DNA from: an uncultured Clostridia bacterium | Lineage (GTDB): Bacteria; Bacillota; Clostridia; Oscillospirales; Ruminococcaceae | DNA length: 38,730 nucleotides | Reading direction: 5' to 3' | Assembly (NCBI GenBank): GCA_947629275.1 | Contig: CANRDG010000001.1 | Span: 1 to 38,730, forward strand | Shown here: positions 758 to 38,150 of the stretch, one piece after another | Layout of the letters: each line of letters opens with the position of its first letter | Numbering within the stretch: position 1 is the first letter of the stretch | Program-made: the position numbers and the translations under genes | Notes under the pieces: generated by a model | Databases searched by the model: none | What the model was told of the DNA's origin: nothing | The model's input: the letters and a program-made list of their open reading frames with translations, nothing else

Positions 758-3700
758 GATGATCTTCCTTTCAATTCTTTTATTTCTGCGGAAAGTTGTT
801 TTAATTTTTCCCAAATAATTGGGATAAATTGTTCATATGCAAGTGTATATATATCTTCGCCGTTTTCGCTTGTGGTAGTAATTATATAATCGTTCTGCCA
901 TGGTATACCGAGTTCTGACAATGCCGCGATCACGTCCTGCGCAACAAAACCAAAGTTTGTTTTGTTTTCAACATCGTCGTTGTATTTAAATGATACTGCC
1001 GAAAGCTTGTCCGGCAAATCAAGCAGCTTTTTTGACAATGGCAATATATCATGCTTAATACGGCTGTCGGAAGAAACCGTTATAGATTTTGCCGATGTGA
1101 TTGCTGTCCCTATAATATGTGTCTTACATAACGATGATGCAACGACTATGCGTTTATCATTATACACATAACCTATAAGACCATATGTCGTTTTGTTTAA
1201 TTCACACCAAAGGTATCTATTGGAAGTTTGATTGTAACCATAGATATATATACTATCGTTTCTTAGCTGAATACATGTTGTATTTTGCCGATTTATATTA
1301 ACAAGCCATGTACTGGTATCGGTGTCTGGTTTCATAGTAGTGAATGATATACCGGCTTCTCTGATTTTTATAATAGAATTATTTCCGCCGCCATAAAGAT
1401 TAGTAGTTTTATCCTTATCCAGAATCAATCCGTTATGTGTAGATGTGTTTATGATTTCTGTTACATCCGCTGTACTCCTGATAGTGAAATAATTATCAGT
1501 AGCAGGAAAAAAGATACCACTATCTTCGCCGGCAGAAATTGAATTCACGCCTTTCAAATCATACCCACCGTTTGCAACATCGTAAAATAGACCTTCATTA
1601 TTAGATTTCCAATACATACTTAGCGGTGTTAAAGTTAATGCGCAAATATTACCAACGCTACTTGTAGCAGTAGGCAATTCTAGCATTGACAACGATATAT
1701 TGCCATTACCTATTGACGTTTTAAATATTTTTGAAGTGTACCCGAATTTAGAAGCTTCGGATGCGGTCTCGAAAGCACCGTTAGAAAGCTGCCACTGAGC
1801 ACCAGCGTATATGCCACCGGGAAATGGTCTGCCTGCGACTGCGGCAGCAGTTTTAAAGTTTGTAGATTGCAAAATACCTGCGGTAACTGTTCCCAAGTTT
1901 GCAGAAATAGCAGAAAGAGACGATATATTAAGCTTGGCAGCAGTAATAGTACTTGCTGCTATTTGTGTAGCTGTAATAGTTCCTGCTGCTATTTTCGCTG
2001 CCGTAACAGCATTTGCAGCGAGCTGATTCGTTCCGACTGCACCTGCTGCGATTTTTGCAGCCGTTATGGCATTTGCCCCAATCCTGTCGGCTGACAACGT
2101 ACCTGTAGTTATTTTCCCGGCATCAAGGTTGGCAATTTTAGCGTTTGTTATAGTTGCATTTGCTATCTTTGCATCTGTTACTGCCAAATTAGCTATCTGT
2201 GCAGTGCCGATACAAGCATCGGCAAATACGCCGCTTGCTGCTGTAAGTGTTTTTGCCGCTAACTTAGCCGCCGTAATAGTACTTGCGACTATGTGATTCG
2301 CTGTAATAGCATTTGCCGCGATTGCCGACGAACCAAACTGTTGTGCTGACCATGTTGTACCATTAAAATAGTACATCTTGTCGCCGTCGTCGGTGTCAAA
2401 CCAAATATCGTTTGCCTTTCTGCCGGTAGTTGCCGGTGCGGCTGCTTGATAAAACACAGTATTCTTGCCGTTTGCAGCTGTAAGAGCGTTTGTAGCTGTT
2501 GTTTGAGCAGATGTAGCTGTTGATTTTGCAGTATCAGCCGTAGATTTGGCAGTATCGGCGGTAGACTTAGCCGTACTTGCTGTGCTGTTCGCCGTATTAA
2601 GCCCATTATCAAGCACAGGTGTAGTTGTAGTTGTACTATTGTCGTCCCATGTGATATAGCTGCGTGTCCATATGTACTTGCCGGAAGTCCACGCAGGGCA
2701 TGAGTCGCTCCACGTCCCACCTGTTTGTGTGGTATTTGAGGAAGACAAATAGTATTGCGGCACAATGGATTTTACGCCCTTTCCTTTCGGACCTGTAGCA
2801 CCTGTAGCACCTGTTGCCCCCTGCGGTCCAGCCGCACCAGTATCCCCTTTTTCGCCCTTATCGCCTTTCGCTCCTGTCGCTCCCGTAGCGCCTTGTGGTC
2901 CTGTTGCGCCAGTAGCTCCCTTAGCACCTGTAATGCATACCGGTGATGTTTCACTGCTTTTACCGTTAGAATATGTAGTAACAGTCTTTGTCCACATATA
3001 TTTGCCGTTTTCCCACGCAGGTACTGTCACACTCCATGTACTGCCCGAAAGTTCAGTAGCGGAAACAGATAAATAATACTGTACTGTTACACCTGTTATT
3101 CCAACGCCTGCCGCTCCTGCTGCACCTGCTGCTCCGACATCACCTTTGTCGCCCTTTTCTCCCTTATCACCTTTGTCGCCTTTAAATTCTCCGCTGTCGG
3201 CACGTCGTTCAAGGTCGTCAACGGTACTTTTTGCTATGCCGGCATCTTCAAAAGCCTGCGCTATCCGTTCATTTATATCCTGTGCCAGTTTATCACCGTC
3301 AATTGCACCTTCTGCTATGGTACTGCCGCCATATGACGTTTGCTGCCATTTCTCACCGTCATAACGATAGATAGCTATTATATTACCGTCGGCATCTGTC
3401 TGAAACCATGTATCATCTTTATACGATAAAGATCTATCGGGTGCATCTGATTGATAAAAATTAGTGTTTTTCCCGTTAGCTGATTTCAAAGCAACCTCTG
3501 AATCTTTCAAAGCAGCCGCAGCATCGTCAAATGCTTTTTGAAGCTGAGCATTCAGTTCTTCGGAAAAAGCATTGCTGTCAAATGCCTGCTTTTCCCAACT
3601 TTTTGTTGCTTCACTGTAAATATATATCGCTCCGCCCTCTAACTCCGAAAACCATATATCGCCGTCAGTTCTTCCTTCAACGGGCGGTGCTTTTTCGCTG

Positions 3701-17745: not shown

Positions 17746-19395
17746 TTACCAAAAGCGCTGAATGATCTTTACACTCGCCGTACCGTTGAAGATATAGTCA
17801 CAAAGCTGTGCCAGACTATCAGGCGCATCATCATGCTGTTTCTTACTGTTTTGATTGTAGGAAAGCAACTGTGCGATAAATTCATCATATTCTTCGCCGC
17901 GGTTTTTATCATTCCGAAAATAGAATTTCATAATATCGGTAGAATATTGTATTATTCTTGACTGCTTGCTTTGAGTTGTAGGCGCACGCTTAGATGTGAT
18001 CCTGATGTGTATACCGAGTTCACGCAAACGGCGGTCAATATCATCAGCATATTCTGTACCGCCGTTGTTGGCTTCAAAGTTTTCGCTGTCCGGCTTATAT
18101 CGCTGAGTTTTGGCAATTATTTGCGGTTGAGTATATGTCTTATCTTTTTGACTAAATACTACGTCGTGAATATATACAGAATTATCGTCGTACACATATG
18201 CAAAAATCATTGAAAGATAATCTCCGCCGCCCCACGCTACATCACACTGCGCTACCTTGCGCGCAGGCTCACAGCTCGGAAGTTCACCGTCATACCAGTT
18301 CATATCACTTTCGTGGAATAGCAATCCCTTTCTTTCGATCGGCTGCTGTAAATACATACAACTAAACGTTAATTCGTCAATATTACTTTTGATCTCTTCG
18401 ATCTTTTTCTTTGTATAGCGGTCGGGGTGGTCGTATTCAAAATTGCTGTGGTGATGTTTATCCCAAACAGGAATTCTTATAAATTCATAGCTGTCGTCAT
18501 TTTCATGTTCTTTTCTCATGCGCGTTAAAGGATCGTGCACCGACCATATTGTGCCAAGCATGATCTGTTTGATATTGTCGCCGATACATCTTGTCGTTAC
18601 TGTGCTGGTATAATCTTCGTACAGAGTATCAAGGCGTTGTTTGTTCCTTGCTACTTCTGCATTTTTTACAAGGTCATCTGTGATAAGAAATTTATTAGCC
18701 CTCGTTCTGCCCGTGATAGATCCGCCCAAGGAAGTTATACCGAGCGTGGGAAAATCGCCCTTTTTTCTGTATGACAAAGTAGCATATTCGGCTGATACAG
18801 TCGGCATACCGTTGGCAAATATATCATTATGGGCGTATTCCGTTGTATCTGTCAGAATTGAACGCAGGCTGTCATACATCATCTTCACCATGCCGTCAGA
18901 ATAAGATATATACATATTTGCCGATTGAGGATATTTTCCTGCAATATAGGCAAGTAAAAACTTAATAAGCGTTGTCTTACCCGTGCCCGGCGGCAGCGAG
19001 ATGCCAATAAAGCTTTTATTCGGATCGTCAATAAACTTCTGTATGCGAGAGATAAGTCCGTGTTTACCTTCCAACACACTGCGGCGCGGCAGCCAGAACT
19101 TTGCCGCAGATGTCCTGTTCCACTCACAAGCGATCATATACATATCAAGGTCATCTGAGGCGGCATACAGTGCAAAATAACGGGCAAGCGTATATGCTGC
19201 CAACGATTTTTGTATATCGTCCGTCGCTGATCTGTTAGTCATACGCATAGCCGCAAAATACCCTGTCTTTGCAGCTTTGATTGAGTATTTGTCTTTATCG
19301 CCGTAAACTTTTAACGTTTCAAGCAGCAGTTTCAAGTTATCGTATTTTTCAAAATCTTTAGATACAGCCAGCTTCAACATTTCGGCATTCGTCAT
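17746..19395 (-). CDS. terL: Terminase large subunit
   Basis: Walker A GISLPPGTGKTT, plus a C-terminal nuclease-like region. Start re-set to MTNAEMLK with SD AAGGAGA. An alternative upstream ATG at 19467 overlaps the recombinase stop as ATGA. Confidence 0.9.
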   Translation of the reverse strand: MTNAEMLKLAVSKDFEKYDNLKLLLETLKVYGDKDKYSIKAAKTGYFAAMRMTNRSATDDIQKSLAAYTLARYFALYAASDDLDMYMIACEWNRTSAAKFWLPRRSVLEGKHGLISRIQKFIDDPNKSFIGISLPPGTGKTTLIKFLLAYIAGKYPQSANMYISYSDGMVKMMYDSLRSILTDTTEYAHNDIFANGMPTVSAEYATLSYRKKGDFPTLGITSLGGSITGRTRANKFLITDDLVKNAEVARNKQRLDTLYEDYTSTVTTRCIGDNIKQIMLGTIWSVHDPLTRMRKEHENDDSYEFIRIPVWDKHHHSNFEYDHPDRYTKKKIEEIKSNIDELTFSCMYLQQPIERKGLLFHESDMNWYDGELPSCEPARKVAQCDVAWGGGDYLSMIFAYVYDDNSVYIHDVVFSQKDKTYTQPQIIAKTQRYKPDSENFEANNGGTEYADDIDRRLRELGIHIRITSKRAPTTQSKQSRIIQYSTDIMKFYFRNDKNRGEEYDEFIAQLLSYNQNSKKQHDDAPDSLAQLCDYIFNGTASVKIIQRFW

Positions 19396-19411
19396 AATTT
19401 CATCTCCTTGA

Positions 19412-19445
19412 CAATAAAAGTGCCCCGAATTTTCGTCCGAGGCAC
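19412..19445 (-). terminator. Intrinsic terminator after the serine recombinase gene, just upstream of the terL RBS
   Basis: On the minus strand: GUGCCUCGGA, a 7-nt loop, UCGGGGCAC, then TTTTATTG. The stem is about 9 bp including G-U pairs. Confidence 0.55.
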
Positions 19446-19463
19446 TTGGCACTGTGTTCATAG

Positions 19464-20216
19464 TCATTTCAGTATAGGCTCATGCTGACCTTTTACCCAG
19501 TCAGCGCCGCCGTATTTGTAAAATCCCCTATAAGTTTTTTCGTTTTCGATAATGCTCTTTATATTGCTTGCATAAAACTGACCGCCTTTTCGCGTGTGAA
19601 AGCCCATGTCGTTTAATTTATTCGCCGTCTGCAAAAGCCCTACACCCTGTGCATGCATTTCAAATATCTTTCTGACTATCTCTGCTTCGCTGTCTTTTAT
19701 AGTCATCACACCGTTTGTAACTTCATATCCATATGGCACTCTGCCGCCGCTGTAGCCGCCCTTGCTTGCTTTTATCTTTCTTCCGCCTGAAGTTCTTTTC
19801 TGAATGTTCACTCTCTCCTGTTCGGCGACAAAAAGTGTGAACGACTTTAGTATTCCCGAAAATGCACCGAAGTCTCCAAAGTTCTCTACAACGCTTATCA
19901 GTTGGACATTTTTCTTGCTGAGAAGCATTTCATAGTAAAAGTATAATTTGATCTCACGGGCAATTCTGTCGCTCTTCGCTACAACGACAGCTTCATACGG
20001 TGGGTTCTTGAATTCGTCGTCATACAGTATCTTGTCAAGAGCAGGTCTGTTATCGCAAACACCGCTTATACCCTCGTCAATGTACCAATCAAGAATATTC
20101 AGGTCGTTCTTTCTGCAATAGTCTTCGATCTGTTCACGCTGCGCATCAAGTCCAAATTTATCTTCACCTGTTTGTCCTGCGGTGCTTACCCGGCAGTAAG
20201 CTATTATGTTTTTCAT
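19464..20216 (-). CDS. Serine recombinase: resolvase catalytic domain plus the 'recombinase' domain, with no zinc-ribbon/coiled-coil domain (250 aa)
   Basis: Start MKNIIAYCRVSTAGQ with SD AAGGAGA. Catalytic motifs YCRVSTAGQ, DEGISG, SDRIAREI and VAEQER are present. The second domain, GGRVPYGYEV...VRKIF...GQHEPILK, ends where large serine integrases continue into the Zn-ribbon. Confidence 0.8.
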   Translation of the reverse strand: MKNIIAYCRVSTAGQTGEDKFGLDAQREQIEDYCRKNDLNILDWYIDEGISGVCDNRPALDKILYDDEFKNPPYEAVVVAKSDRIAREIKLYFYYEMLLSKKNVQLISVVENFGDFGAFSGILKSFTLFVAEQERVNIQKRTSGGRKIKASKGGYSGGRVPYGYEVTNGVMTIKDSEAEIVRKIFEMHAQGVGLLQTANKLNDMGFHTRKGGQFYASNIKSIIENEKTYRGFYKYGGADWVKGQHEPILK

Positions 20217-20241
20217 AAATGTCACTCTCCTTTACAATTAC

Positions 20242-20538: not shown

Positions 20539-21150
20539 CTAATCAGTATCATCATGCCGCTCTGCGTTCAATGCCTGCTCACTCTCTTGCAGTAAGCGCT
20601 TCTGTATATCGCTTATATCACCCGATCCGTCGAGCATATCTATCTGCCTTACTATTTCTTCGTCCGGTGTGTCTTTCAAGCCGTAATAATTCTTGGCGCG
20701 AAAAATATAAGCTACGACATTAAGCTTGCCTGCCATGACCATTTTGGCATCGAAAATCTTCAAAAAATCTTTGGCTTTTTTAATAATTTGCGACGTATTG
20801 GGGCTGAACCCTTTTGACCTTCCCTTTTCCCAGTCGATAACAGTCGAATGAGAATAGCCTGTATAAGTGACCATTTCTTCAACACAAGGCGTAATTCCCT
20901 TTTCGGCACACCTGCAAAAATAGCTGTCAAGACGTTCTACAAGTTCCTCGTCGCTCTTTACGCGAGGCATCTTGTAAGCCTCATATGCTTCACGCAGTAT
21001 CTTTTGAAGAAGCGCCTTATCCTCGTCTGTTTCAAATACGCCATCGTAAGAAGTGCTAAAGTTATTGCGACCACCTCTGCCATACAGCGGTCGCTCTTTA
21101 TCAGTAACTATTTCAGCATTTACTTTAAGAACATCATCTTTCTTTTTCAA
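20539..21150 (-). CDS. terS: Terminase small subunit (P22 gp3-like packaging protein)
   Basis: TTG start with SD AAAGGAGA 6 nt upstream. A central HTH-like GITPCVEEMVTYTGYSHSTVIDWEKG and the segment AKDFLKIFDAKMVMAGKLNVVAYIFRAKNYYGLKD match the gp3-type terS pattern. Confidence 0.75.
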   Translation of the reverse strand: MKKKDDVLKVNAEIVTDKERPLYGRGGRNNFSTSYDGVFETDEDKALLQKILREAYEAYKMPRVKSDEELVERLDSYFCRCAEKGITPCVEEMVTYTGYSHSTVIDWEKGRSKGFSPNTSQIIKKAKDFLKIFDAKMVMAGKLNVVAYIFRAKNYYGLKDTPDEEIVRQIDMLDGSGDISDIQKRLLQESEQALNAERHDDTD

Positions 21151-21152
21151 AG

Positions 21153-21371
21153 CTATTCTCCTTTCTCGGCAGGCGATATATCGTCAAGTGAGCATATATA
21201 AGCGGTCTTGCCGTCGCTGCGCATCTCGGTAACTTCCGCCTGATAATAAAAGCCGCTGTCATTTCTCCTTATCGTCGCTCCCGTCAATATGTACACGCCG
21301 TTTATGTGTAGTCTATCGTTTCTGAACACCACACGTTTGTTCAGGTAGTGCTTTATTTCTTTTTCTGTCAT
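21153..21371 (-). CDS. Hypothetical small protein (72 aa)
   Basis: ORF whose start overlaps the RusA stop. It lies upstream of terS, a slot often used by late regulators. No motif recognised. Confidence 0.5.
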   Translation of the reverse strand: MTEKEIKHYLNKRVVFRNDRLHINGVYILTGATIRRNDSGFYYQAEVTEMRSDGKTAYICSLDDISPAEKGE

Positions 21372-21823
21372 ATGTCTAACCTCTGTATAGCTACAAATAT
21401 TCCCGGCGTGTCAGACCAAAACTTCTCGACGATCTCAGAAGCGACAATAGCATCATCGCTGAAAAAGCCGACCTCGGTCAGGCAGTCTTTGAAAAGCTTT
21501 TGAAGATTATCAGTGTCGGGTCGTGTAATCTTATAGTCGCCGTCGTTATGCTTGTTGGTGCGATCAAGCGGAAACAGCCACTTGACCATAAGCCGAACAG
21601 GCACATTGGCAAACATGGGCTTTTCTATTCCACATTGCTTTTCATATGCGTTAAACTTATGACCTAGATGTGCTAAGAACTTATCATGTGCAGATTTTAA
21701 TTCAGGCGTTTCGTAGAAAATCATCTTGCCGCTTTTACTTTGAGTAACCCTGCTTTGCTGCTTAGTGATCCGCGGCGGTATCATCGGCAGGAAAAATCTA
21801 ACATCATCATTTTTGTTTGGCAT
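21368..21823 (-). CDS. rusA: RusA-family Holliday junction resolvase
   Basis: Start re-set to MPNKNDD with SD AAGGAG. The motifs PRITKQQ...RPDTDNLQKLFKDCL...DDAIV match the RusA endodeoxyribonuclease pattern. Confidence 0.75.
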   Translation of the reverse strand: MPNKNDDVRFFLPMIPPRITKQQSRVTQSKSGKMIFYETPELKSAHDKFLAHLGHKFNAYEKQCGIEKPMFANVPVRLMVKWLFPLDRTNKHNDGDYKITRPDTDNLQKLFKDCLTEVGFFSDDAIVASEIVEKFWSDTPGIFVAIQRLDI

Positions 21824-21877
21824 ATTTTTACAACTCCTTTTCTTTGTGTTTTGGGGTCTGCGAATATTTCTATTCAT

Positions 21878-21909
21878 ATTTTATGGGGTTGTTTAATACC
21901 CCATAAAAT
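21878..21909. other. Perfect 12-bp-stem hairpin flanking the iteron array
   Basis: ATTTTATGGGGT (21878..21889), an 8-nt loop, then ACCCCATAAAAT (21898..21909). No clear U-tract in the gene direction. Confidence 0.5.
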
Positions 21910-21937
21910 AATATGAAATATTATTTAGGTTTTTTCC

Positions 21938-22161
21938 GGGAGAAAATATCGATTAAGTTATCGATATTTTCTTCCAAAATTGCTCGGAAGAAAAAATTAT
22001 TTTATCGATTTCTTCTTCCACGAGAAAGAAAATATCGATTAAATTTTCTTTTCTTCTCGGAAGAAGAAATCGAAGTTAATCGAAATTTTCTTCCAAGACG
22101 TTTCTATTTTCAACATTATTCCCTGGAAGAAAAAATCGGACTTAATCGATATTTTCTTTCC
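21938..22161. repeat. Array of five imperfect palindromic ~34-38-bp units (iteron-like; candidate replication origin or multi-operator)
   Basis: Units lie at 21938..21975, 21986..22019, 22022..22058, 22059..22094 and 22125..22161. All have the form GGAAGAAAA-ATCGA-TTAA-TCGA-TTTTCTTCC. Units 4 and 5 plus their right flanks form a ~66-bp direct repeat. Confidence 0.85.
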
Positions 22162-22186
22162 AAGATGTTTCTGTATTCAACAATAT

Positions 22187-24424
22187 TCAACAAGCTTTAA
22201 TTCCCACATTTTTGCCCTCTTTCCAAAAGCCGCCATGTTCTGAAATACGATTAAGAACTGTCTTCTCACTCACGCCCATGTACTCGGCTAAGTCACTTGT
22301 GGTACATTGACCGTTCTCGGCTACGGCATAAAAGGCAGTCTCGACAGATTTCTTCCTGTCCTCTTGGCGCTGCTCGTTACTTTTGCGCTTGTCAAAGTTC
22401 TTTCCCCAAGGTGAGCCTTTGGCAGTTGTTTTCGGCTGCGTACCCTCAAAGCCTAGGTCTTTAAGAGAGCCTGTGTCGTCTATGCGGTGTATCGGGTAGT
22501 CAAACCATAAGTTTATAGGCTCAAACTTCGGAAACTCTCGCAGCGTGCCCTCTACTCGCCACGCCGTGCGACCGCTCATGCCGTGCTTGGCTCTGTCTAT
22601 CTCGTCTATCATCAATTTGTACGACTTAAGCGATAATATCTCTCGTGCCTTTTCCGTCATTACAGATGCAGACTGCATATCGTCCTGCGATAGATCCGGA
22701 TCGCCGTCAAATCGGCATATCCATTCGCGGCAGATACGGCAAGTCAGCTTGTTTTCTTCTTGCTTCTTTAAGCTGTCTGTAATTTCGAGCTCGGCAAAGT
22801 CGAGAAGCGCATCAGGATCGCGCGCGAATACTCCCGAGCCCGAAGCTCTGTCCATAGACCTTTTCGCACCCTGCAATCCCTTAGAGTGATGGTGGCAGTA
22901 TATGACCGCACACCCAAGCTCGTTGCACACGCTGTCAAAGTAATTGCAGAATTTTGACATATGTTCCGCGCTGTTTTCGTCGCCCGTCAGCATCTTGTAT
23001 ATTGGGTCAAAGATAATTGCAATATAGCCGCGCTTTTTGGCACGGTGTATAAGCTTTGGTGCAAGCTTGTCCATGGGCGCACTGTGACCGCGCAAGTTTA
23101 GTATATCTATTTTATCAAAGTTATCGACTTTGTAGCCGAGGGCATCGTATACGTCCTTAAAACGGTGCATACATGATGCGCCGTCAAGCTCCAAGTTTAC
23201 ATACAGCACCTTACCTTGTGCGCAGTTAAATCCCAGCCATTTCTCACCCTCTGCAATAGCTATGCAGAGCGATATAAGCGCAAATGACTTGCCGGCTTTA
23301 GAAGGCCCTGCGACAAGCAGCTTGTGCCCTTGTCTTAGCACACCGTCAATAAGCGGCGGTGCAAGCTTGGGCATATGCTGCCATACGTCGGCAAGGCACA
23401 CTGTGTCGGGCAGATCATCATTGATAGCCGCTATGTAGTCATACCACTCCTGCCAGCTGCGCTTGCCTATGTGACTGTCGACTATAAACTGCTTACGCTC
23501 GCCGCGCTCTATTCCCGGCAGGCGTGAGAGCCTTGACGGATTGCGGCAGCTTTTGTCTACATAAAGCCCGTTCTTGCGGCATACGCCAAAAAGATAGTCT
23601 ACTCGCTTGTGGTACTCGTTAAGATCAGGCGCATCTATATGCACTATAGCGTGCAGGCTCTTGCCGCCTGTATATACAAGCATAGCGACAGGCAGCTCTA
23701 AATCTCTTATAAGCGCGTTCTGCTCTTCAAGCGCCATGTTGTCACTCTCAACAAGCGCGTATCTGTAGTCGGTTACATTCTCGTCTTTAACGCCCCTGCC
23801 GTCAAGAGGATTAAAGCGGATCCATGCGCCTGCCTCTTTTTTGTAGTCGCCAAGCACCGCGCCTATATCGCCGCCGCACTTACGCAGCTCTTTAATAAGC
23901 TCTCCTGCCGTGCGGTCGTAGCTGCCTCTGTTCGGCAAGTGCTTTACAGTGCCGTCGTCGCTCTGCTTTTCCCACGTTTCTGTTACATAGCCGACATGGT
24001 CGTCTTTATCAAACAGCGTTTCGAGATATGTAATTATCTGCTCGGCAGGATTCCACACCGTAGGCTCTTTAACGGGTATGCCCTCGCCTGTCAGCGGCGC
24101 GGAGAGCGTTTCTTCCTCGGCGGTAATGACGTCATTCCAGTCATAGGCAAGCGGCGCAGGGCGTTTGAACTCAAAGCCTCTGTCTTTTGCCATTTGTACG
24201 ATAGTACCTGCCGTTACCGGCGAGGCAGATCCGCCGAAGGTGTTCCACTTGCTCTGACATTCGCCGGCATGAAAGCGACGTGCATCACGCCTCGACCAGT
24301 TTTCCCAGTCGGTGCAGGAGTACCCCTCATGTTTGAGCGCCATACCGACGTTTATCCACTCTTGATAGTCGCAGTCGGCAGGGTCTATGTGGTCTAATAT
24401 ATCAGTAAGTTTAATATTATCCAT
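22187..24424 (-). CDS. Primase-helicase: PriCT-2-like N-terminus + AEP-type primase core + AAA_25/RepA-like ATPase + C-terminal HTH
   Basis: N-terminal W-NVGMALKHEG...W-WS...KW; a primase-like segment VESD...GGKSLHAIVHID; Walker A GPSKAGKSF; C-terminal HTH TTSDLAEYMGVSEKTVLNRI. Confidence 0.75.
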   Translation of the reverse strand: MDNIKLTDILDHIDPADCDYQEWINVGMALKHEGYSCTDWENWSRRDARRFHAGECQSKWNTFGGSASPVTAGTIVQMAKDRGFEFKRPAPLAYDWNDVITAEEETLSAPLTGEGIPVKEPTVWNPAEQIITYLETLFDKDDHVGYVTETWEKQSDDGTVKHLPNRGSYDRTAGELIKELRKCGGDIGAVLGDYKKEAGAWIRFNPLDGRGVKDENVTDYRYALVESDNMALEEQNALIRDLELPVAMLVYTGGKSLHAIVHIDAPDLNEYHKRVDYLFGVCRKNGLYVDKSCRNPSRLSRLPGIERGERKQFIVDSHIGKRSWQEWYDYIAAINDDLPDTVCLADVWQHMPKLAPPLIDGVLRQGHKLLVAGPSKAGKSFALISLCIAIAEGEKWLGFNCAQGKVLYVNLELDGASCMHRFKDVYDALGYKVDNFDKIDILNLRGHSAPMDKLAPKLIHRAKKRGYIAIIFDPIYKMLTGDENSAEHMSKFCNYFDSVCNELGCAVIYCHHHSKGLQGAKRSMDRASGSGVFARDPDALLDFAELEITDSLKKQEENKLTCRICREWICRFDGDPDLSQDDMQSASVMTEKAREILSLKSYKLMIDEIDRAKHGMSGRTAWRVEGTLREFPKFEPINLWFDYPIHRIDDTGSLKDLGFEGTQPKTTAKGSPWGKNFDKRKSNEQRQEDRKKSVETAFYAVAENGQCTTSDLAEYMGVSEKTVLNRISEHGGFWKEGKNVGIKAC

Positions 24425-29875: not shown

Positions 29876-30706
29876 TTATTCAAATAAACTTATCTGCGCC
29901 CAGTGTTCTTTTTCTTTGAGAATATTCCAATAAAAACGATTGCTACTATCTATAACACCTGAATCTTCTAAAGCAAAACGCTTGTCAAAGTCGTGTACAG
30001 AGTGTCCGTCAGGTTTGAAATGTACAGGGCTGTCGCTATCCCATTTCAAAAGCAATTGCCATAAGTCGGGGTAGTTCTTGCGCAATAACCGTAATTGCTG
30101 AATCCCCTGATTGTGGCAAAACCAGCAACCGCCCCGTGTAGCTGTGGTGTATATAGGAGATAACAGGTCGTTTTCCTCACACCATTTTCGGCAGTCGGCT
30201 TCTGTCCAGTTTGCAAGAACTAAAGGACTAATTTTACAATCGTTCAAACTATGAAAGCGATTAGGCTCATCGGCAGCTATTCCGATATAATCATAACGCT
30301 CTTTACCGTCTGTGCATTTAATACTATTTATAGCATTAAGCTTTAATTTGTTACACCAATTGCCTTTTATCAACGGAAAGCCTTTAACTTTTCCAACATA
30401 TTTGCCTTTTATGCGTTTACTGAAAAAGCATTTCTCATAAGTCATTTTGTCGCTTGTATAACCGTCAACTTTTGTAGCAACAATGTGTTCTACATTTATG
30501 CCCCAACGTTCCTTGATAATGCGATCCGCCTTAGCCTTAAACTCTTGCATAGGCGGCAGATCTGCCGATATAGTATCTGTCGCCCATACTTCCGCATGGA
30601 CTATTCTGTCAAGCGGCAGACCCAGCTTTTCTATCGCGCCTAAGCAAGCAAGGCTGTCCTTGCCGTAAGAAAGGCTGAGTATGTACTCTTTATTCTGATT
30701 TCTCAT
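29876..30706 (-). CDS. PAPS-reductase-family (PP-loop) protein
   Basis: N-terminal LSLSYGKDS is a variant of the PP-loop SGGKDS motif. C-terminal GGCWFC Cys motif. It overlaps the upstream methyltransferase gene by 17 nt. Confidence 0.7.
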   Translation of the reverse strand: MRNQNKEYILSLSYGKDSLACLGAIEKLGLPLDRIVHAEVWATDTISADLPPMQEFKAKADRIIKERWGINVEHIVATKVDGYTSDKMTYEKCFFSKRIKGKYVGKVKGFPLIKGNWCNKLKLNAINSIKCTDGKERYDYIGIAADEPNRFHSLNDCKISPLVLANWTEADCRKWCEENDLLSPIYTTATRGGCWFCHNQGIQQLRLLRKNYPDLWQLLLKWDSDSPVHFKPDGHSVHDFDKRFALEDSGVIDSSNRFYWNILKEKEHWAQISLFE

Positions 30707-33536: not shown

Positions 33537-34391
33537 ATGTTAAGATTGAAAGAATTAAGACAGGAAAAGAAACAAAACATGAGACAGACGGCTATTGCAT
33601 TAGGAATTCCATATACAACTTATATATCTTATGAAAAAGGAGACAGGGAGCCTAATTCAGAAATGTTAATTGCATTAGCCGAATACTTTAATTGTTCAAT
33701 TGACTATCTTGTCGGAAGAAGTAATGAAAGAATTAGTGACGAAGTTTTAGATCAAGTAAATTTACTAGATAATGATTTATTGGTATTTCACGGAAATATT
33801 CATGATGCCAAAAAAGCTCAAAAAGAAAGATATTCTAAACTTACGTCAAGTCAACAATTTTATAACGAGCAACCATTGGACTTTTTAACAAGTGATGAGA
33901 TGTCTCAAATAAAAAAATACCGTACACTTGACGAGTACGGCAAAAAAATAATGAATAGTGTGTTGAATATTGAATATGATAGATGCACGCATATGGAAGA
34001 ACAATCAACAATTGAGCTACCTATACAATTGATCTCGGCATCTGCTGGAACGGGTCAATGGCTCGGTGATGATGAATATACAGAACGTATAAGAGTAGCT
34101 GATACAGCAGAAGCGCGAAAGGCTAACCTCGTAATTGAAGTAAATGGAAACAGTATGCTACCTAGTTATAAAGACGGTGATAAAGTACTTGTTCGTTTGC
34201 AACGAGACATAAATATAGGTGAAATAGGCATTTTCGTTGTAAATGGCAGTGCTTATATTAAAGAAAAAGGTAAAAACGAACTTGTATCTCTAAATCCCGA
34301 ATTTGACAATATCGCTATTAACGAATATGATAGGATAGATTGCGTTGGAAAAGTATTAGGTATAGCAGACGTTATAGATTATTCTATTTAG
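33537..34391 (+). CDS. CI-like repressor: XRE HTH + LexA/S24 autopeptidase domain
   Basis: N-terminal HTH QNMRQTAIALGIPYTTYISYEKG. A candidate Ala-Gly cleavage site (SASAGTG). S24 catalytic Ser in VNGNSMLP and Lys in YIKEKG. Confidence 0.85.
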   Translation: MLRLKELRQEKKQNMRQTAIALGIPYTTYISYEKGDREPNSEMLIALAEYFNCSIDYLVGRSNERISDEVLDQVNLLDNDLLVFHGNIHDAKKAQKERYSKLTSSQQFYNEQPLDFLTSDEMSQIKKYRTLDEYGKKIMNSVLNIEYDRCTHMEEQSTIELPIQLISASAGTGQWLGDDEYTERIRVADTAEARKANLVIEVNGNSMLPSYKDGDKVLVRLQRDINIGEIGIFVVNGSAYIKEKGKNELVSLNPEFDNIAINEYDRIDCVGKVLGIADVIDYSI

Positions 34392-35345: not shown

Positions 35346-35383
35346 AGCATAAAATTTTTTGAATGTCAATAGGAGGAGTTTTT

Positions 35384-36532
35384 ATGCCTATTTATAAGAT
35401 GACAGGCAAGAAAAACGGCAAGCAGCGTTACCGTGTGCGTATCAACTACACAGACAACTACGGCAAGGCGCATCAGACCGACCGCACTGTTTACGGTCTT
35501 GAAGAGGCAAAAATGCTTGAATATCAGCTTACCAACGACATCAAGCGCAAGAAAGAAACGCCTGCTGCCGGTATGACGATCAGCGATCTCTATGAAGAAT
35601 ATATCAACGCAAAGCGATATGAGGTGCGCGAGACCACTCTTGACAAGAGCGTGCGCATAATCGCGCGATACATCATACCCGAATGCGGCAGCACCAAGCT
35701 GTCGAAGTTTAACGTGGCTTCCGTCCAGAAGTGGAAGATGTACATGGAAGGGCTGAACGTCGGCATCACCACCAAGCGGAATGTCTATGGGGTGTTCCAC
35801 GCGATGATAAACTATGCCGTGAAAATGGAATATATGTCGCGAAACGTGCTGGAGCAGGCTGGTAACTTCAAAGCGCCGCTCGATACCACAGCCACCAAAG
35901 AAATGCAGTACTACACCGCCGACGAGTTCAAGCGGTTTATTGCCGCCGCAAAAAGTGAGGCTGAAGCGGCAGAAGCCAAGGGTGAGCTGTACAAATGGAA
36001 TTTTTATGTATTTTTTAACATCGCCTTTTACACAGGTATGCGCAAAGGCGAAATTAACGCCCTACAGTGGACGGACATCAAGGATGGCAGGATAAGCATT
36101 ACAAAGAGCGTGGCGCAGAAGCTTAAAGGTGCTGACCGCATCACGCCGCCGAAAAATAAAAGCAGCATACGCACTATACAGATACCGTTGCCGCTCATGG
36201 CGGTGCTGGAGCAGCACAAGGAGCGGTGCAGTGCCATTGACGGCTTTGCTGAGAGCTGGTATATCTGTGGCGGTGTGCGCTGCATAAGAGATACCAGCGT
36301 GCAGAAAACCTTGCAGAGATACGCCGAGGCGGCAGGTGTTAAAGCGATAAGGGTGCACGACTTTCGGCACAGCCATGCTTCCCTGCTTGCCAACGAGGGC
36401 ATAAACATACAGGAGATCGCACGTCGGCTCGGTCACGCGAAGATAAGCATGACGTGGGACACCTATTCGCATTTGTATCCGAGAGAGGAAGAAAGGGCGA
36501 TAAAAATTCTGAATAATATAAAAAACGTGTAA
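35384..36532 (+). CDS. int: Tyrosine integrase
   Basis: Start re-set to MPIYKMTGK with SD AGGAGGAG. Catalytic residues are present: R in YTGMRKGE, HDFRH (H-x-x-R), LGH, and Y in DTYSHL. It lies adjacent to the tRNA. Confidence 0.9.
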   Translation: MPIYKMTGKKNGKQRYRVRINYTDNYGKAHQTDRTVYGLEEAKMLEYQLTNDIKRKKETPAAGMTISDLYEEYINAKRYEVRETTLDKSVRIIARYIIPECGSTKLSKFNVASVQKWKMYMEGLNVGITTKRNVYGVFHAMINYAVKMEYMSRNVLEQAGNFKAPLDTTATKEMQYYTADEFKRFIAAAKSEAEAAEAKGELYKWNFYVFFNIAFYTGMRKGEINALQWTDIKDGRISITKSVAQKLKGADRITPPKNKSSIRTIQIPLPLMAVLEQHKERCSAIDGFAESWYICGGVRCIRDTSVQKTLQRYAEAAGVKAIRVHDFRHSHASLLANEGINIQEIARRLGHAKISMTWDTYSHLYPREEERAIKILNNIKNV

Positions 36533-36551
36533 AAATCGTGTAAGCAAAATA

Positions 36552-36579
36552 ATAAACCCCCGATTATTCGAGGGTTTAT
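36552..36579. terminator. Bidirectional hairpin terminator between int and tRNA-Ser
   Basis: ATAAACCC, a central section (inner CG/CG pairs and an ATTATT loop), then GGGTTTAT. T-rich on the + side (TTATTCTC) and on the minus side (TTTATTATTTT). Confidence 0.6.
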
Positions 36580-36586
36580 TCTCATA

Positions 36587-36678
36587 TGGCGGAGCAGGAG
36601 AGATTCGAACTCTCGGTCCCGATTAAGGGATTACTCGATTTCGAGTCGAGCCCGTTATGACCACTTCGATACTGCTCC
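36587..36678 (-). tRNA. tRNA-Ser (anticodon CGA), type II with a long variable arm; CCA encoded
   Basis: Folded by hand. Acceptor stem GGAGCAG/CTGCTCC, 3-bp D stem, anticodon stem CTCGA/TCGAG with loop CT-CGA-AA, an 18-nt variable arm, T arm GAGAG-TTCGAAT-CTCTC, discriminator G, and CCA. Confidence 0.9.
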
Positions 36679-36707: not shown

Positions 36708-36736
36708 ATTATAACACATCGCGAAGAAAAAATCAA
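36708..36736 (-). promoter_or_regulatory. tRNA-Ser promoter
   Basis: On the minus strand: TTGATT (36736..36731), a 17-nt spacer, then TATAAT (36713..36708), preceded by TGTGT. It lies about 30 nt upstream of the tRNA 5' end. Confidence 0.55.
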
Positions 36737-36849: not shown

Positions 36850-36893
36850 AGTATGTGTATGTATATTTTGCGAGAGGAGCAAAACTTAGGATC

Positions 36894-38150
36894 ATGAAAA
36901 CACCGTTTATCACTAAAGAACAAGCAGAAGAAATAATCAAAAAATACCCCACGCCTTTTCACATATACGACGAAAAAGGCATAAGAGAAAACGCACGCCG
37001 AGTAAAGCAGGCGTTTGCGTGGAATAAAGGCTTCAAAGAGTATTTTGCCGTTAAAGCTACACCAAACCCGTTCATTCTGAAAATATTGCAGGAGGAAGGC
37101 TGCGGCGTTGACTGCTCCAGCTATACCGAGCTGCTGATGAGCAAGGCGTGCGGCTTTGAGGGCGAGGATATAATGTTCTCTTCAAATGTAACGCCCGATA
37201 AAGACTACCTTTTGGCAAGGGAGCTTGGCGCAATTATAAATATCGATGATTTTACGCACATTGAGCACCTTGACAAGCTGTGCGGAATTCCCGAGCTTAT
37301 TTGCTGCCGCTATAACCCGGGCGGAAAGTTTGAAATGCACAATCAGATAATGGATAACCCCGGCGACGCTAAGTACGGCTTTACAAAAGCTCAGATAATC
37401 GAGGGCTTTAAGATACTGAAACAGAAAGGCGCAAAGGAATTCGGTCTGCACAGCTTCTTGGCTTCAAATACCGTTACCGACGACTACTACCCCGAGCTTG
37501 CAAGGATACTCTTTGAGCTTGCTGTTGAGATACAAAAAGAAACGGGCTGCAAGTTTAAGTTTGTGAATCTTTCGGGCGGCGTAGGCGTGGCTTACAGACC
37601 CGAGCAGCGCGGCAACGATATTATGAACATCGGCGAGGGCGTGCGCAAGGCGTATGAGGAAATACTCGTACCAAACGGCATGGGCGATGTTGCGATATTT
37701 ACCGAGATGGGCAGATTTATGCTCGCACCTTACGGACACCTTGTGACAAAGGTGCTGCACTTTAAGCATATATATAAAGAGTATGTGGGCGTTGATGCCT
37801 GCGCTGCAAACCTTATGAGACCCGCAATGTACGGCGCATACCACCATATAACGGTGCTTGGTAAGGAAAATGAGCCTTGCGACCACGTTTACGACGTTAC
37901 CGGCGGGCTTTGCGAGAACAATGACAAGTTTGCAATTGACAGAAAACTGCCGAAGATAGACATCGGTGATATACTTGTGATACATGATACCGGCGCACAC
38001 GGCTTTGCTATGGGCTATAACTACAACGGTAAGCTCCGCAGCGCGGAAGTTCTTCTGAAAGAGGACGGCAGCACGCAGCTTATAAGACGCGCGGAAACGC
38101 CGGAAGATTACTTCGCAACGTTTGATTTTTCGGACTTTTTCAAAAAGTAA
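36894..38150 (+). CDS. lysA: Diaminopimelate decarboxylase (PLP-dependent Orn/DAP/Arg decarboxylase fold)
   Basis: Start re-set to MKTPFITKEQ. PLP-lysine context FAVKATPNP, a Gly-rich NLSGGVGVAY segment, and C-terminal GGLCENNDKF...HDTGAHG. Confidence 0.8.
   Translation: MKTPFITKEQAEEIIKKYPTPFHIYDEKGIRENARRVKQAFAWNKGFKEYFAVKATPNPFILKILQEEGCGVDCSSYTELLMSKACGFEGEDIMFSSNVTPDKDYLLARELGAIINIDDFTHIEHLDKLCGIPELICCRYNPGGKFEMHNQIMDNPGDAKYGFTKAQIIEGFKILKQKGAKEFGLHSFLASNTVTDDYYPELARILFELAVEIQKETGCKFKFVNLSGGVGVAYRPEQRGNDIMNIGEGVRKAYEEILVPNGMGDVAIFTEMGRFMLAPYGHLVTKVLHFKHIYKEYVGVDACAANLMRPAMYGAYHHITVLGKENEPCDHVYDVTGGLCENNDKFAIDRKLPKIDIGDILVIHDTGAHGFAMGYNYNGKLRSAEVLLKEDGSTQLIRRAETPEDYFATFDFSDFFKK

Follow-up and report, generated by a model that had tools for sequence, protein, structure and literature searches.

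Here, we focus on a gap between two genes in a 38,730-nt stretch of DNA from an uncultured Clostridia bacterium of the Ruminococcaceae (contig CANRDG010000001.1, positions 1 to 38,730), hereafter called the window. The gap at positions 21877-22186 is probably the cis-acting replication origin of a temperate phage, with the primase-helicase encoded immediately upstream as its likely initiator. This reading is supported by a comparison of layouts among related phages, by co-variation between the repeats of the gap and the protein, and by the domain make-up of that protein; from these we infer initiation itself. A preliminary description of the region, made from the letters alone, had proposed an origin beside the initiator/primase gene and had named the C-terminal helix-turn-helix (HTH) of the protein as a candidate binder. 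Both proposals have gained ground. The array of repeats is fixed at the primase stop codon, is conserved, and co-varies with the protein, whose C-terminus is predicted to be a winged helix with a recognition-helix residue that tracks the repeats.

The gap has a G+C content of 25-32% compared to 45-55% in the primase gene, and an array of five palindromic units begins 27 nt past the primase-helicase stop codon (Table 1). Each unit is a palindrome of 34-38 bp made of two 16-bp half-sites, which in turn combine an outer box (GGAAGAAAA) with an inner box (ATCGAT). The centers of paired half-sites lie ~22 bp apart and are therefore on the same face of the helix. The ATCGAT core is missing from one arm each of units 2 and 3, leaving eight good and two degenerate half-sites in the array, and these two units jointly make an inside-out palindrome at 22004-22039. 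With up to three mismatches allowed, the half-site GGAAGAAAATATCGAT has ten matches in the window, eight of them within the 223 bp from 21938 to 22160. Dinucleotide shuffles gave an expectation of 0.49 +/- 0.70 for the whole window, and none of 100 shuffles reached ten. The two remaining matches, at 36722 and 38497, are at the three-mismatch limit and lie outside the prophage lytic genes; no further close copy or second close cluster occurs in the rest of the window, including the immunity region and the promoter-proximal gaps. The 34-nt unit pattern is matched twice, with 0.00 matches expected. A blastn search with the repeat region against 50,697 phage records returned no match, and the element is recognizable by its layout and not by its sequence.

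The tandem duplication of units 4 and 5 is the highest-scoring repeat that Tandem Repeats Finder (TRF) called in the window. The ~30-bp flank of these units (22095-22124 and 22161-22186; TGTTGAAWAYAGAAACRTCTT on the sense strand) is present only in the window and two close relatives, and it is possible that it serves as a host-factor site, as a weak promoter, or has no role. A perfect 10-bp tandem duplication (two copies of TATTCAACAA, 22174-22193) overlaps the primase-helicase stop codon; its copy number is polymorphic, with only one copy in the close relative L001. At the other end of the array, the lone outer-box-like element may be the counterpart of a terminal GAGGGAAGAAAAAG / GGGACAGACAAAC element found in some relatives. 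Unit spacing of ~37 bp is documented for the window and five further loci (L003-L007). A universal 37-bp period is not claimed, as an automatic palindrome caller run on 151 distinct arrays gave a noisy spacing distribution.

Much of the preliminary description of this DNA holds. All five of its palindromic units were found, with the start of unit 3 moved from 22022 to 22024, and both its ~66-bp direct repeat of units 4 and 5 and its AT-rich setting are borne out, the former by the TRF score and the latter by the base composition given above. The hairpin that it saw at the far end is indeed perfect, but the stem has 13 bp (21877-21910) and not 12 bp (21878..21909). The DNA between the primase-helicase stop and the RusA gene is non-coding as it stated, but reaches further than thought: the RusA start is most likely the ATG at 21823, preceded by an AAAGGAG ribosome-binding site, and not 21877, because the upstream ATG is out of frame and runs into a stop in both close relatives (L001 and L002). 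The non-coding gap is therefore 21824-22186 (363 bp). The 95-residue open reading frame (ORF) on the plus strand, which had been read as the repeats in frame, is not a gene: it has no Pfam match, and stops break it in the relatives that are 97-98% identical.

Table 1. Features of the window discussed in the text (positions are those of the whole stretch).
Feature	Position	Strand	Remarks
Primase-helicase gene, 745 residues (proposed initiator)	22187..24424	-	PriCT_2 7-79; AEP primase ~120-335; RepA/RecA-fold helicase ~356-545; predicted winged helix 683-745
Region coding for the predicted C-terminal winged helix	22190..22378	-	residues 683-745
Recognition helix (predicted)	22235-22267	-	residues E720-H730
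Proposed specificity residue N725	22250-22252 (codon)	-	sixth residue of the recognition helix
Unit 5	22125-22160		GGAAGAAAAAATCGGA-CTTAA-TCGATATTTTCTTTC; closest unit to the primase stop
Unit 4	22059-22094		palindromic
Unit 3	22024-22056		left arm complete; right arm without ATCGA core
Unit 2	21986-22019		right arm complete; left arm without core
Unit 1	21938-21975		best palindrome; 16-nt arms, 94% complementary
66-bp tandem duplication	22059-22188		units 4 and 5, each with ~30-bp flank; TRF: 2.0 copies, 85% matches, score 197
Lone outer-box-like element	21928..21937		sense GGAAAAAACC; between unit 1 and the A/T-rich palindrome
A/T-rich stretch	21903..21927		24/25 A/T; between unit 1 and the hairpin; proposed DNA-unwinding element
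21-bp all-A/T-type palindrome	21906-21926		AAATAATAT-GAA-ATATTATTT; inside the A/T-rich stretch
Hairpin/cruciform	21877..21910		13-bp perfect stem, GGGG/CCCC core, 8-nt loop
RusA-like resolvase gene, revised start	21368..21823	-	Pfam RusA; neighbor, outside the element
terS-like gene	20539-21150		~700 bp downstream of the array
terL	17746-19467		
CI-like repressor	33537-34391		
Tyrosine integrase	35363-36532	+	adjoins the tRNA gene
tRNA gene	36590-36678	-	
Diaminopimelate/ornithine decarboxylase gene, host-like	36855-38150		beyond the tRNA gene

The comparison set comprises about 180 related phage loci in all. Closest to the window are two rabbit-gut Clostridia genomes (L001 and L002) which carry the same element and whose primases are 97-98% identical to that of the window. 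In six Ruminococcus-type loci (~57% identity) and 80 viral contigs (59-64%), the array without exception starts at or overlaps the primase stop codon; an all-A/T palindrome (such as TATATTATTACATAATATATA), a GC-cored hairpin, and the ribosome-binding site of the next gene then follow. The order of array, A/T-rich palindrome, and hairpin after the stop was found in every relative inspected, namely L003-L007, the 75 distinct gaps of L001-L088, four cultured phages (Paenibacillus phage Dragolir, Streptococcus phage Javan535, Faecalibacterium phage FP_Lugh, and Flavonifractor phage Castelnaud), and one Streptococcus satellite. The satellite is 9.8 kb long and has the same layout, and the protein it encodes comprises no more than a related helicase and a C-terminal HTH. 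The repeat sequences themselves vary by lineage, with an inner box near TCGA or TCGG and an outer box of GGAA, GAGA, GACA, or CGCA. The gene that follows the array is usually RusA and is a different one in L005, L007, L014, and L031; therefore, the array travels with the primase gene. No origin is annotated in the four cultured relatives, where the region is either blank or covered by small 'hypothetical protein' calls. Two such coding sequences lie over the array or the hairpin region, DRAGOLIR_58 in Dragolir (L089, 2252-2371) and WAK79715.1 in Castelnaud (L092, 1919-2176), and both are probably artifacts of gene calling.

Each of the 75 distinct gaps of the relatives has a comparable A/T-rich stretch, with A and T making up at least 83% of 24 bp, mostly between array and hairpin. 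The hairpin of the window has arms of 13 nt each (21877-21889 and 21898-21910) which are 100% complementary, and its free energy as DNA is -12.7 kcal/mol (z = -4.6 to -5.0). Hairpins at the matching position in relatives have at least ten different sequences, and in most of them it is the 5' arm, as read in the sense direction, that carries the G-run, which hints at a strand-specific, single-stranded role. A role as an intrinsic terminator was considered and rejected: there is no terminator call, and in the sense direction the stem is followed by ATGAATAG and not by a T-run, which occurs after the hairpin only in some relatives (L003 and L004). In a number of loci (L065, L067, L071, L073, L074, L087 at ~150-260 nt after the stop, L089-L092, and L188 at 2990-3075), a long imperfect hairpin of ~60-90 nt replaces the short one. 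It sits after the A/T palindrome, is common to loci of different repeat class, has no Rfam match, and recalls the pRN1 stem-loop and the ssi sites of RSF1010. An Rfam scan of the window and four loci found tRNAs only, and the hairpins belong to no known RNA family. A view of the hairpin arms as an extra half-site pair co-varying with repeat class is true of the Clostridia subgroup with short hairpins and was dropped as a general claim; elsewhere in the family the arm motif is absent from 12 hairpins of the Arg class (defined below) and present in two non-Arg ones. The A/T palindrome stands at the distal end of the array, with box-like sequence on its far side, in the hairpin arms, in only part of the family.

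The gap is also conserved to a degree that the synonymous sites of its neighbor are not. Between the window and the two close relatives, 5 of 353 (1.4%) and 8 of 363 (2.2%) non-coding positions differ, whereas in the same two comparisons the adjacent primase gene has changes at 72 of 309 (23.3%) and 47 of 304 (15.5%) of its fourfold-degenerate sites. Substitution in the gap is thus 7-16 times lower than at neighboring synonymous sites and, judged by these rates, the gap is under strong purifying selection. The substitutions that did occur sit in the loops, junctions, and flanks of the units, while the A/T palindrome and the hairpin are identical. The exceptions are a single half-site base in L001 and a change of 1 nt in the length of the A-run in the degenerate arm of unit 2.

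The protein encoded upstream matches PriCT_2 (7-79) and AAA_25 (356-516) in Pfam as well as PHROG 2597 'DNA primase'. Its helicase part matches the RSF1010 RepA structure 1g8y already at the sequence level (phmmer E 3.4e-6). An AlphaFold model of the full protein (pLDDT 71) gave Foldseek matches to the AEP domain of the PrimPol of cyanophage S-2L, to RSF1010 RepA (1g8y, E 5e-5), and to RSF1010 RepB' (3h20, E 2.8e-4). Judged by its domain order and prophage location against the available text of the source, the protein belongs to the published 'InversePrim' AEP family (PMC5862659). As that text has it, a PriCT domain precedes the AEP domain in InversePrim, which is fused to a RepA-family helicase and is reported only from prophages, mostly of Firmicutes; the domain is named PriCT-1 there, where Pfam scores PriCT_2 here (PMC5862659). 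Residues 683-745 are predicted to form a winged helix. The full model and one built for the last 85 residues alone (pLDDT 81) agree on the fold order of helix, strand, helix, helix, and wing (a beta-hairpin), with a pLDDT of about 85-92 in the core, and the closest folds of the isolated domain are winged helices of the CRP/GlxR, IclR, and MarR types. No Staphylococcus aureus pathogenicity island (SaPI) Rep or P4 alpha domain was among the Foldseek matches of this domain. The ten ORFs of the replication region that were scanned include no RepC-like protein; the fused winged helix is the presumptive binder of the repeats.

The link between protein and DNA is clearest in the recognition helix. 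When the last 80 residues of the protein are aligned across 84 loci, the column of N725 predicts the class of the outer box perfectly, its mutual information of 0.985 bit being equal to the class entropy, and the next best column reaches 0.70. Arg at this position goes with GACA (once with CGCA), while Asn, Ser, or Lys go with GGAA or GAGA. The set was extended to 164 loci by 80 Streptococcus-type loci and by a further Ruminococcus set, of which 15 loci were found and those with a parseable helix were entered. The 114 loci with Arg have a median of 14 GACA counts compared to 0-3 in the 50 loci without it, and the lone low value among the former belongs to L087 with its CGCA box. In many relatives (L011, L014, L063, L073, and many database proteins), the first half-site of the array doubles as the final 5-8 codons of the primase-helicase gene and gives the protein a tail like KDKDKIE or KGKGKSR. 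Repeat class can therefore be read from the tail, and the rule can be tested on proteins alone. In a separate set of database proteins, 29 of 32 Arg helices have tails of the ...DKDK(I/V)E type (GACAA), and 21 of 22 non-Arg helices have ...GKGKSR or ...EK-type tails. Co-variation of the repeats with the C-terminus of the primase-helicase was a check that the preliminary description had put forward, and its outcome is positive down to a single residue of the helix. Arg contacting a G:C pair and Asn an A:T pair would be the usual preferences of these amino acids, which we note as a lead only. Similarly, the helix S-E-K-T-V-G-R of one class presumably resembles the CRP helix R-E-T-V-G-R, again no more than a lead.

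The two classes interleave across the tree of the remaining protein in at least five clades. In one clade, there is a KAM/KSM polymorphism eight codons upstream of the helix, and each of the four possible combinations with helix type is found (L065, L068, L070, and L067), and the downstream A/T palindrome and hairpin are alike in both classes. Helix type and array class are never separated. The unit exchanged is, on this pattern of recombination, a short cassette comprising the recognition helix and the array. Among L009-L064 and L088, most of which come from metagenome 3300045988, cassettes of GACA and GGAA type alternate among otherwise near-identical primase genes. Such alternation suggests frequent exchange and perhaps diversifying selection on origin specificity.

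How might such an origin work? First, the C-terminal winged helices would bind the paired half-sites, concentrating subunits on the DNA. The RepA-like helicase domains would then form one or more rings beside the array and open the A/T palindrome at 21903-27, after which the AEP primase domain of the same polypeptide would prime on the strands so exposed. In this step, a folded single-strand landmark in the manner of the RSF1010 ssi sites or the pRN1 stem-loop could be provided by the GC-cored hairpin at 21877-21910. Finally, the host polymerase would take over. Binding, melting at the A/T palindrome, priming, the role of the hairpin, and the start of replication at the site are all parts of the model that we infer; the non-random repeats, the selection on the gap, the layout kept among relatives, the domains of the protein, and the coupling of one helix residue to the repeat motif are what the analysis shows.

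Several observations weigh against an origin of this kind. The A/T-rich element is at the far end of the array and not central as in SaPIs. No inflection at 22 kb is seen in the cumulative GC skew, a measure that carries no information when a phage is transcribed in one direction. In the literature, experimental data for this phage or protein family were not found, and a tblastn search of 72,556 plasmids gave one match, in a 2.7-Mb replicon, with no small plasmid that uses the protein as its replicon. The fold matches of the C-terminal domain are generic and weak (E >= 7.5e-3), as expected for a domain of 60 residues. As for the co-variation, helix and array are ~100-300 bp apart, and therefore part of it could reflect inheritance as a linked cassette and not contact. 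The one-residue rule also breaks when position 2 of the helix changes as well, the exceptions being L087 (SEDTVRR, CGCA box) and FP_Lugh (PDTVRR, GGAAAATAGC repeat), and only some members of the family show co-variation of the hairpin sequence with repeat class.

These points leave room for the array to be bound by the winged helix without being the place where replication starts. It could instead be a copy-control or 'handcuffing' element, an auxiliary element like crr of P4, or a decoy that titrates the initiator of an incoming phage. We consider this unlikely, yet binding of the initiator for a purpose other than initiation is a serious residual rival. Co-variation indicates coupling to the protein and not initiation as such, and the frequent switching of specificity among near-identical phages of one metagenome fits an escape from titration. 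An auxiliary or decoy site would, however, leave the start site to be found elsewhere, and the window holds no second close cluster of half-sites. In addition, an A/T-only palindrome and a hairpin are conserved beside the array, and the satellite that has only a helicase with an HTH retains the same layout.

The preliminary description had offered a different alternative, an operator array for a dimeric regulator such as the 263-residue dual-HTH protein. Either this protein or the primase-helicase itself would then govern whether transcription of the early replication genes reads through into RusA and the late genes. Operators typically have dyad symmetry, the array lies at the boundary of the replication and packaging modules, and there is one weak promoter-like match within it (22113..22085). 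Nevertheless, this alternative is not favored and seems improbable to us. Scans for promoters and terminators were at chance level, there are no close copies of the sites elsewhere, including the immunity region and promoter-proximal gaps, and five to ten sites spread across 220 bp with an A/T palindrome are unlike the layout of an operator. Moreover, the repeats co-vary with the C-terminus of the helicase itself.

Packaging offers another possible use for such DNA. Since pac sites can be repeated, bent, and A/T-rich, as in SPP1, and a terS-like gene lies ~700 bp downstream, the array could be a pac site for the small terminase. This is very unlikely given the arrangement in relatives, where the array in all cases keeps to the stop codon of the primase gene and changes together with the C-terminus of the protein. 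In Dragolir, the genes after the array are RusA, a sigma factor, and a RinA activator, in Javan535 they are several small genes, and the 1.5 kb examined downstream of both arrays contains no terminase gene. Finally, that the repeats are functionless products of slippage and duplication, or a small mobile repeat in an A/T-rich gap, is scarcely credible: the 66-bp and 10-bp tandem duplications, the latter lacking one copy in L001, show that the region does duplicate, but the substitution rate is depressed as described above, the layout is kept in roughly 180 loci despite their different sequences, and there is no close copy elsewhere in the window and none in the phage database.

The setting of the proposed origin is that of a phage. 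The window (38.7 kb) is a prophage of a temperate phage with its lytic genes on the minus strand. At 35363-36678, the integrase and tRNA gene, together with the host-like gene beyond them, probably mark the right end of the prophage and a tRNA attachment site. The replication module comprises, in order of transcription, an AAA_23 ATPase, a Sak4-like AAA_24 protein, a PHROG-2698 protein, a DEAD-box helicase, and the 745-residue primase, and past the primase come the gap, RusA, a small ORF, the terS-like gene, terL, and the portal gene. A serine-recombinase-like ORF of 253 residues with Resolvase and Recombinase domains (19464-20225, minus strand) is found in an unusual position between the terS-like gene and terL, and a PAPS-reductase-like protein (PHROG 424; 29876-30706, minus strand) is encoded among the early genes.

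For the window itself, the outcome is a well-supported but unproven origin prediction, and it is the wider pattern that carries the interest. We hold with less assurance, as quite possible and short of probable, that the pattern represents an undescribed and widespread type of origin in InversePrim phages of Firmicutes, in which one polypeptide would combine roles like those of RepC, RepA, and RepB', specificity would lie largely in one residue of the helix, and cassettes of ~0.3 kb would be swapped frequently. If so, Arg would pair with G:C in the GACA box and Asn, Ser, or Lys with A:T in the GGAA or GAGA box. The likely driver of the swaps would be an escape from initiator titration or from cross-talk between co-resident prophages, which would amount to a system of replication 'incompatibility types' for phages. 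Hardly any temperate phage from gut Clostridia, streptococci, or Paenibacillus has its origin annotated. A grammar of array at the primase-helicase stop, A/T palindrome, and hairpin would make it possible to annotate origins by sequence in thousands of prophages; more than 8,000 homologs of the primase-helicase exist in databases. The pairing of one residue with one motif is a directly testable rule of protein-DNA recognition. It would give a handle on the replication compatibility of related phages and a route to origin-based phage resistance or to phage-derived vectors for Firmicutes that are hard to manipulate.

In kind, an origin beside the gene of its initiator-helicase and read through a C-terminal winged helix is already known from SaPI, P4, pRN1, and RSF1010. 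The available text of the InversePrim report describes the protein, and neither a C-terminal winged helix nor a cis-acting origin for the family was found there (PMC5862659). A prior description of the present version was not found in the searchable literature, a scope that leaves aside most subscription journals. Phages of Streptococcus thermophilus of the Sfi21/2972 type have a predicted ori in a non-coding stretch downstream of the replication module (PMC13575424). No S. thermophilus phage was among the tblastn matches of the 745-residue protein, and theirs is therefore a different initiator family. An element after the primase gene of Sfi21 was reportedly described by Foley et al. in 1998 and is said to confer phage resistance when cloned.

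Other systems share the arrangement of domains. In P4, the alpha protein unites primase, helicase, and a C-terminal winged helix that binds repeats of the origin (PMC4234260). The protein of the window has the same combination, although P4 alpha has a Toprim primase and a superfamily 3 (SF3) helicase. P4 has two separated clusters of repeats (ori and crr), and its origin is not beside the stop codon of the gene. ORF904 of pRN1 is likewise a fusion of primase, helicase, and winged helix, and its gene is followed within 166 bp by a stem-loop that is an essential cis element (PMC4234260). Both ORF904 and the Bordetella phage BIP-1 type resemble the present system in their AEP primase, helicase, and C-terminal winged helix with a downstream cis element; unlike here, their helicase is of the SF3 type, no iterons are reported, and the stem-loop is ~100 nt long.

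The arrangement of the DNA is best compared with SaPIs and RSF1010. In SaPIs, the origin lies immediately after rep and contains iterons and an A/T-rich segment, and its specificity is set by the C-terminal winged helix that recognizes it, part of a self-loading helicase which in PriRep5 of SaPI5 is fused to a primase (PMC9371898). As in SaPIs and the phage-inducible chromosomal islands (PICIs), the array of the window is directly downstream of the initiator-helicase gene, with multiple repeats, an A/T-rich segment, and a predicted C-terminal winged helix. However, SaPI Reps are AAA+/SF3- or MCM-like and their iterons of 5-6 nt flank a central A/T region, whereas here a RecA-fold, RepA-like helicase is found with palindromes of 34-38 bp, a distal A/T palindrome, and then a hairpin. 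RSF1010 oriV divides the work among RepC, which binds the iterons, RepA, which unwinds the DNA, and RepB', which primes at the ssi hairpins (PMC4234260, PMC8567376). The helicase of the window is a sequence and fold relative of RepA and its primase a fold relative of RepB', and the order of repeats, A/T-rich segment, and hairpin is the same. In contrast to the three separate proteins of RSF1010, there is one polypeptide here; in place of 20-bp direct iterons bound by RepC there are palindromes with a fused winged helix as the presumed reader, and in place of two ssi hairpins there is one stable, position-conserved hairpin with a putative role in priming. What appears to be new is thus the use of a RecA-fold helicase of the RepA type with composite palindromes of 34-38 bp, the placing of an A/T palindrome and then a hairpin at the distal side of the array, and a single residue that tracks the repeat class.

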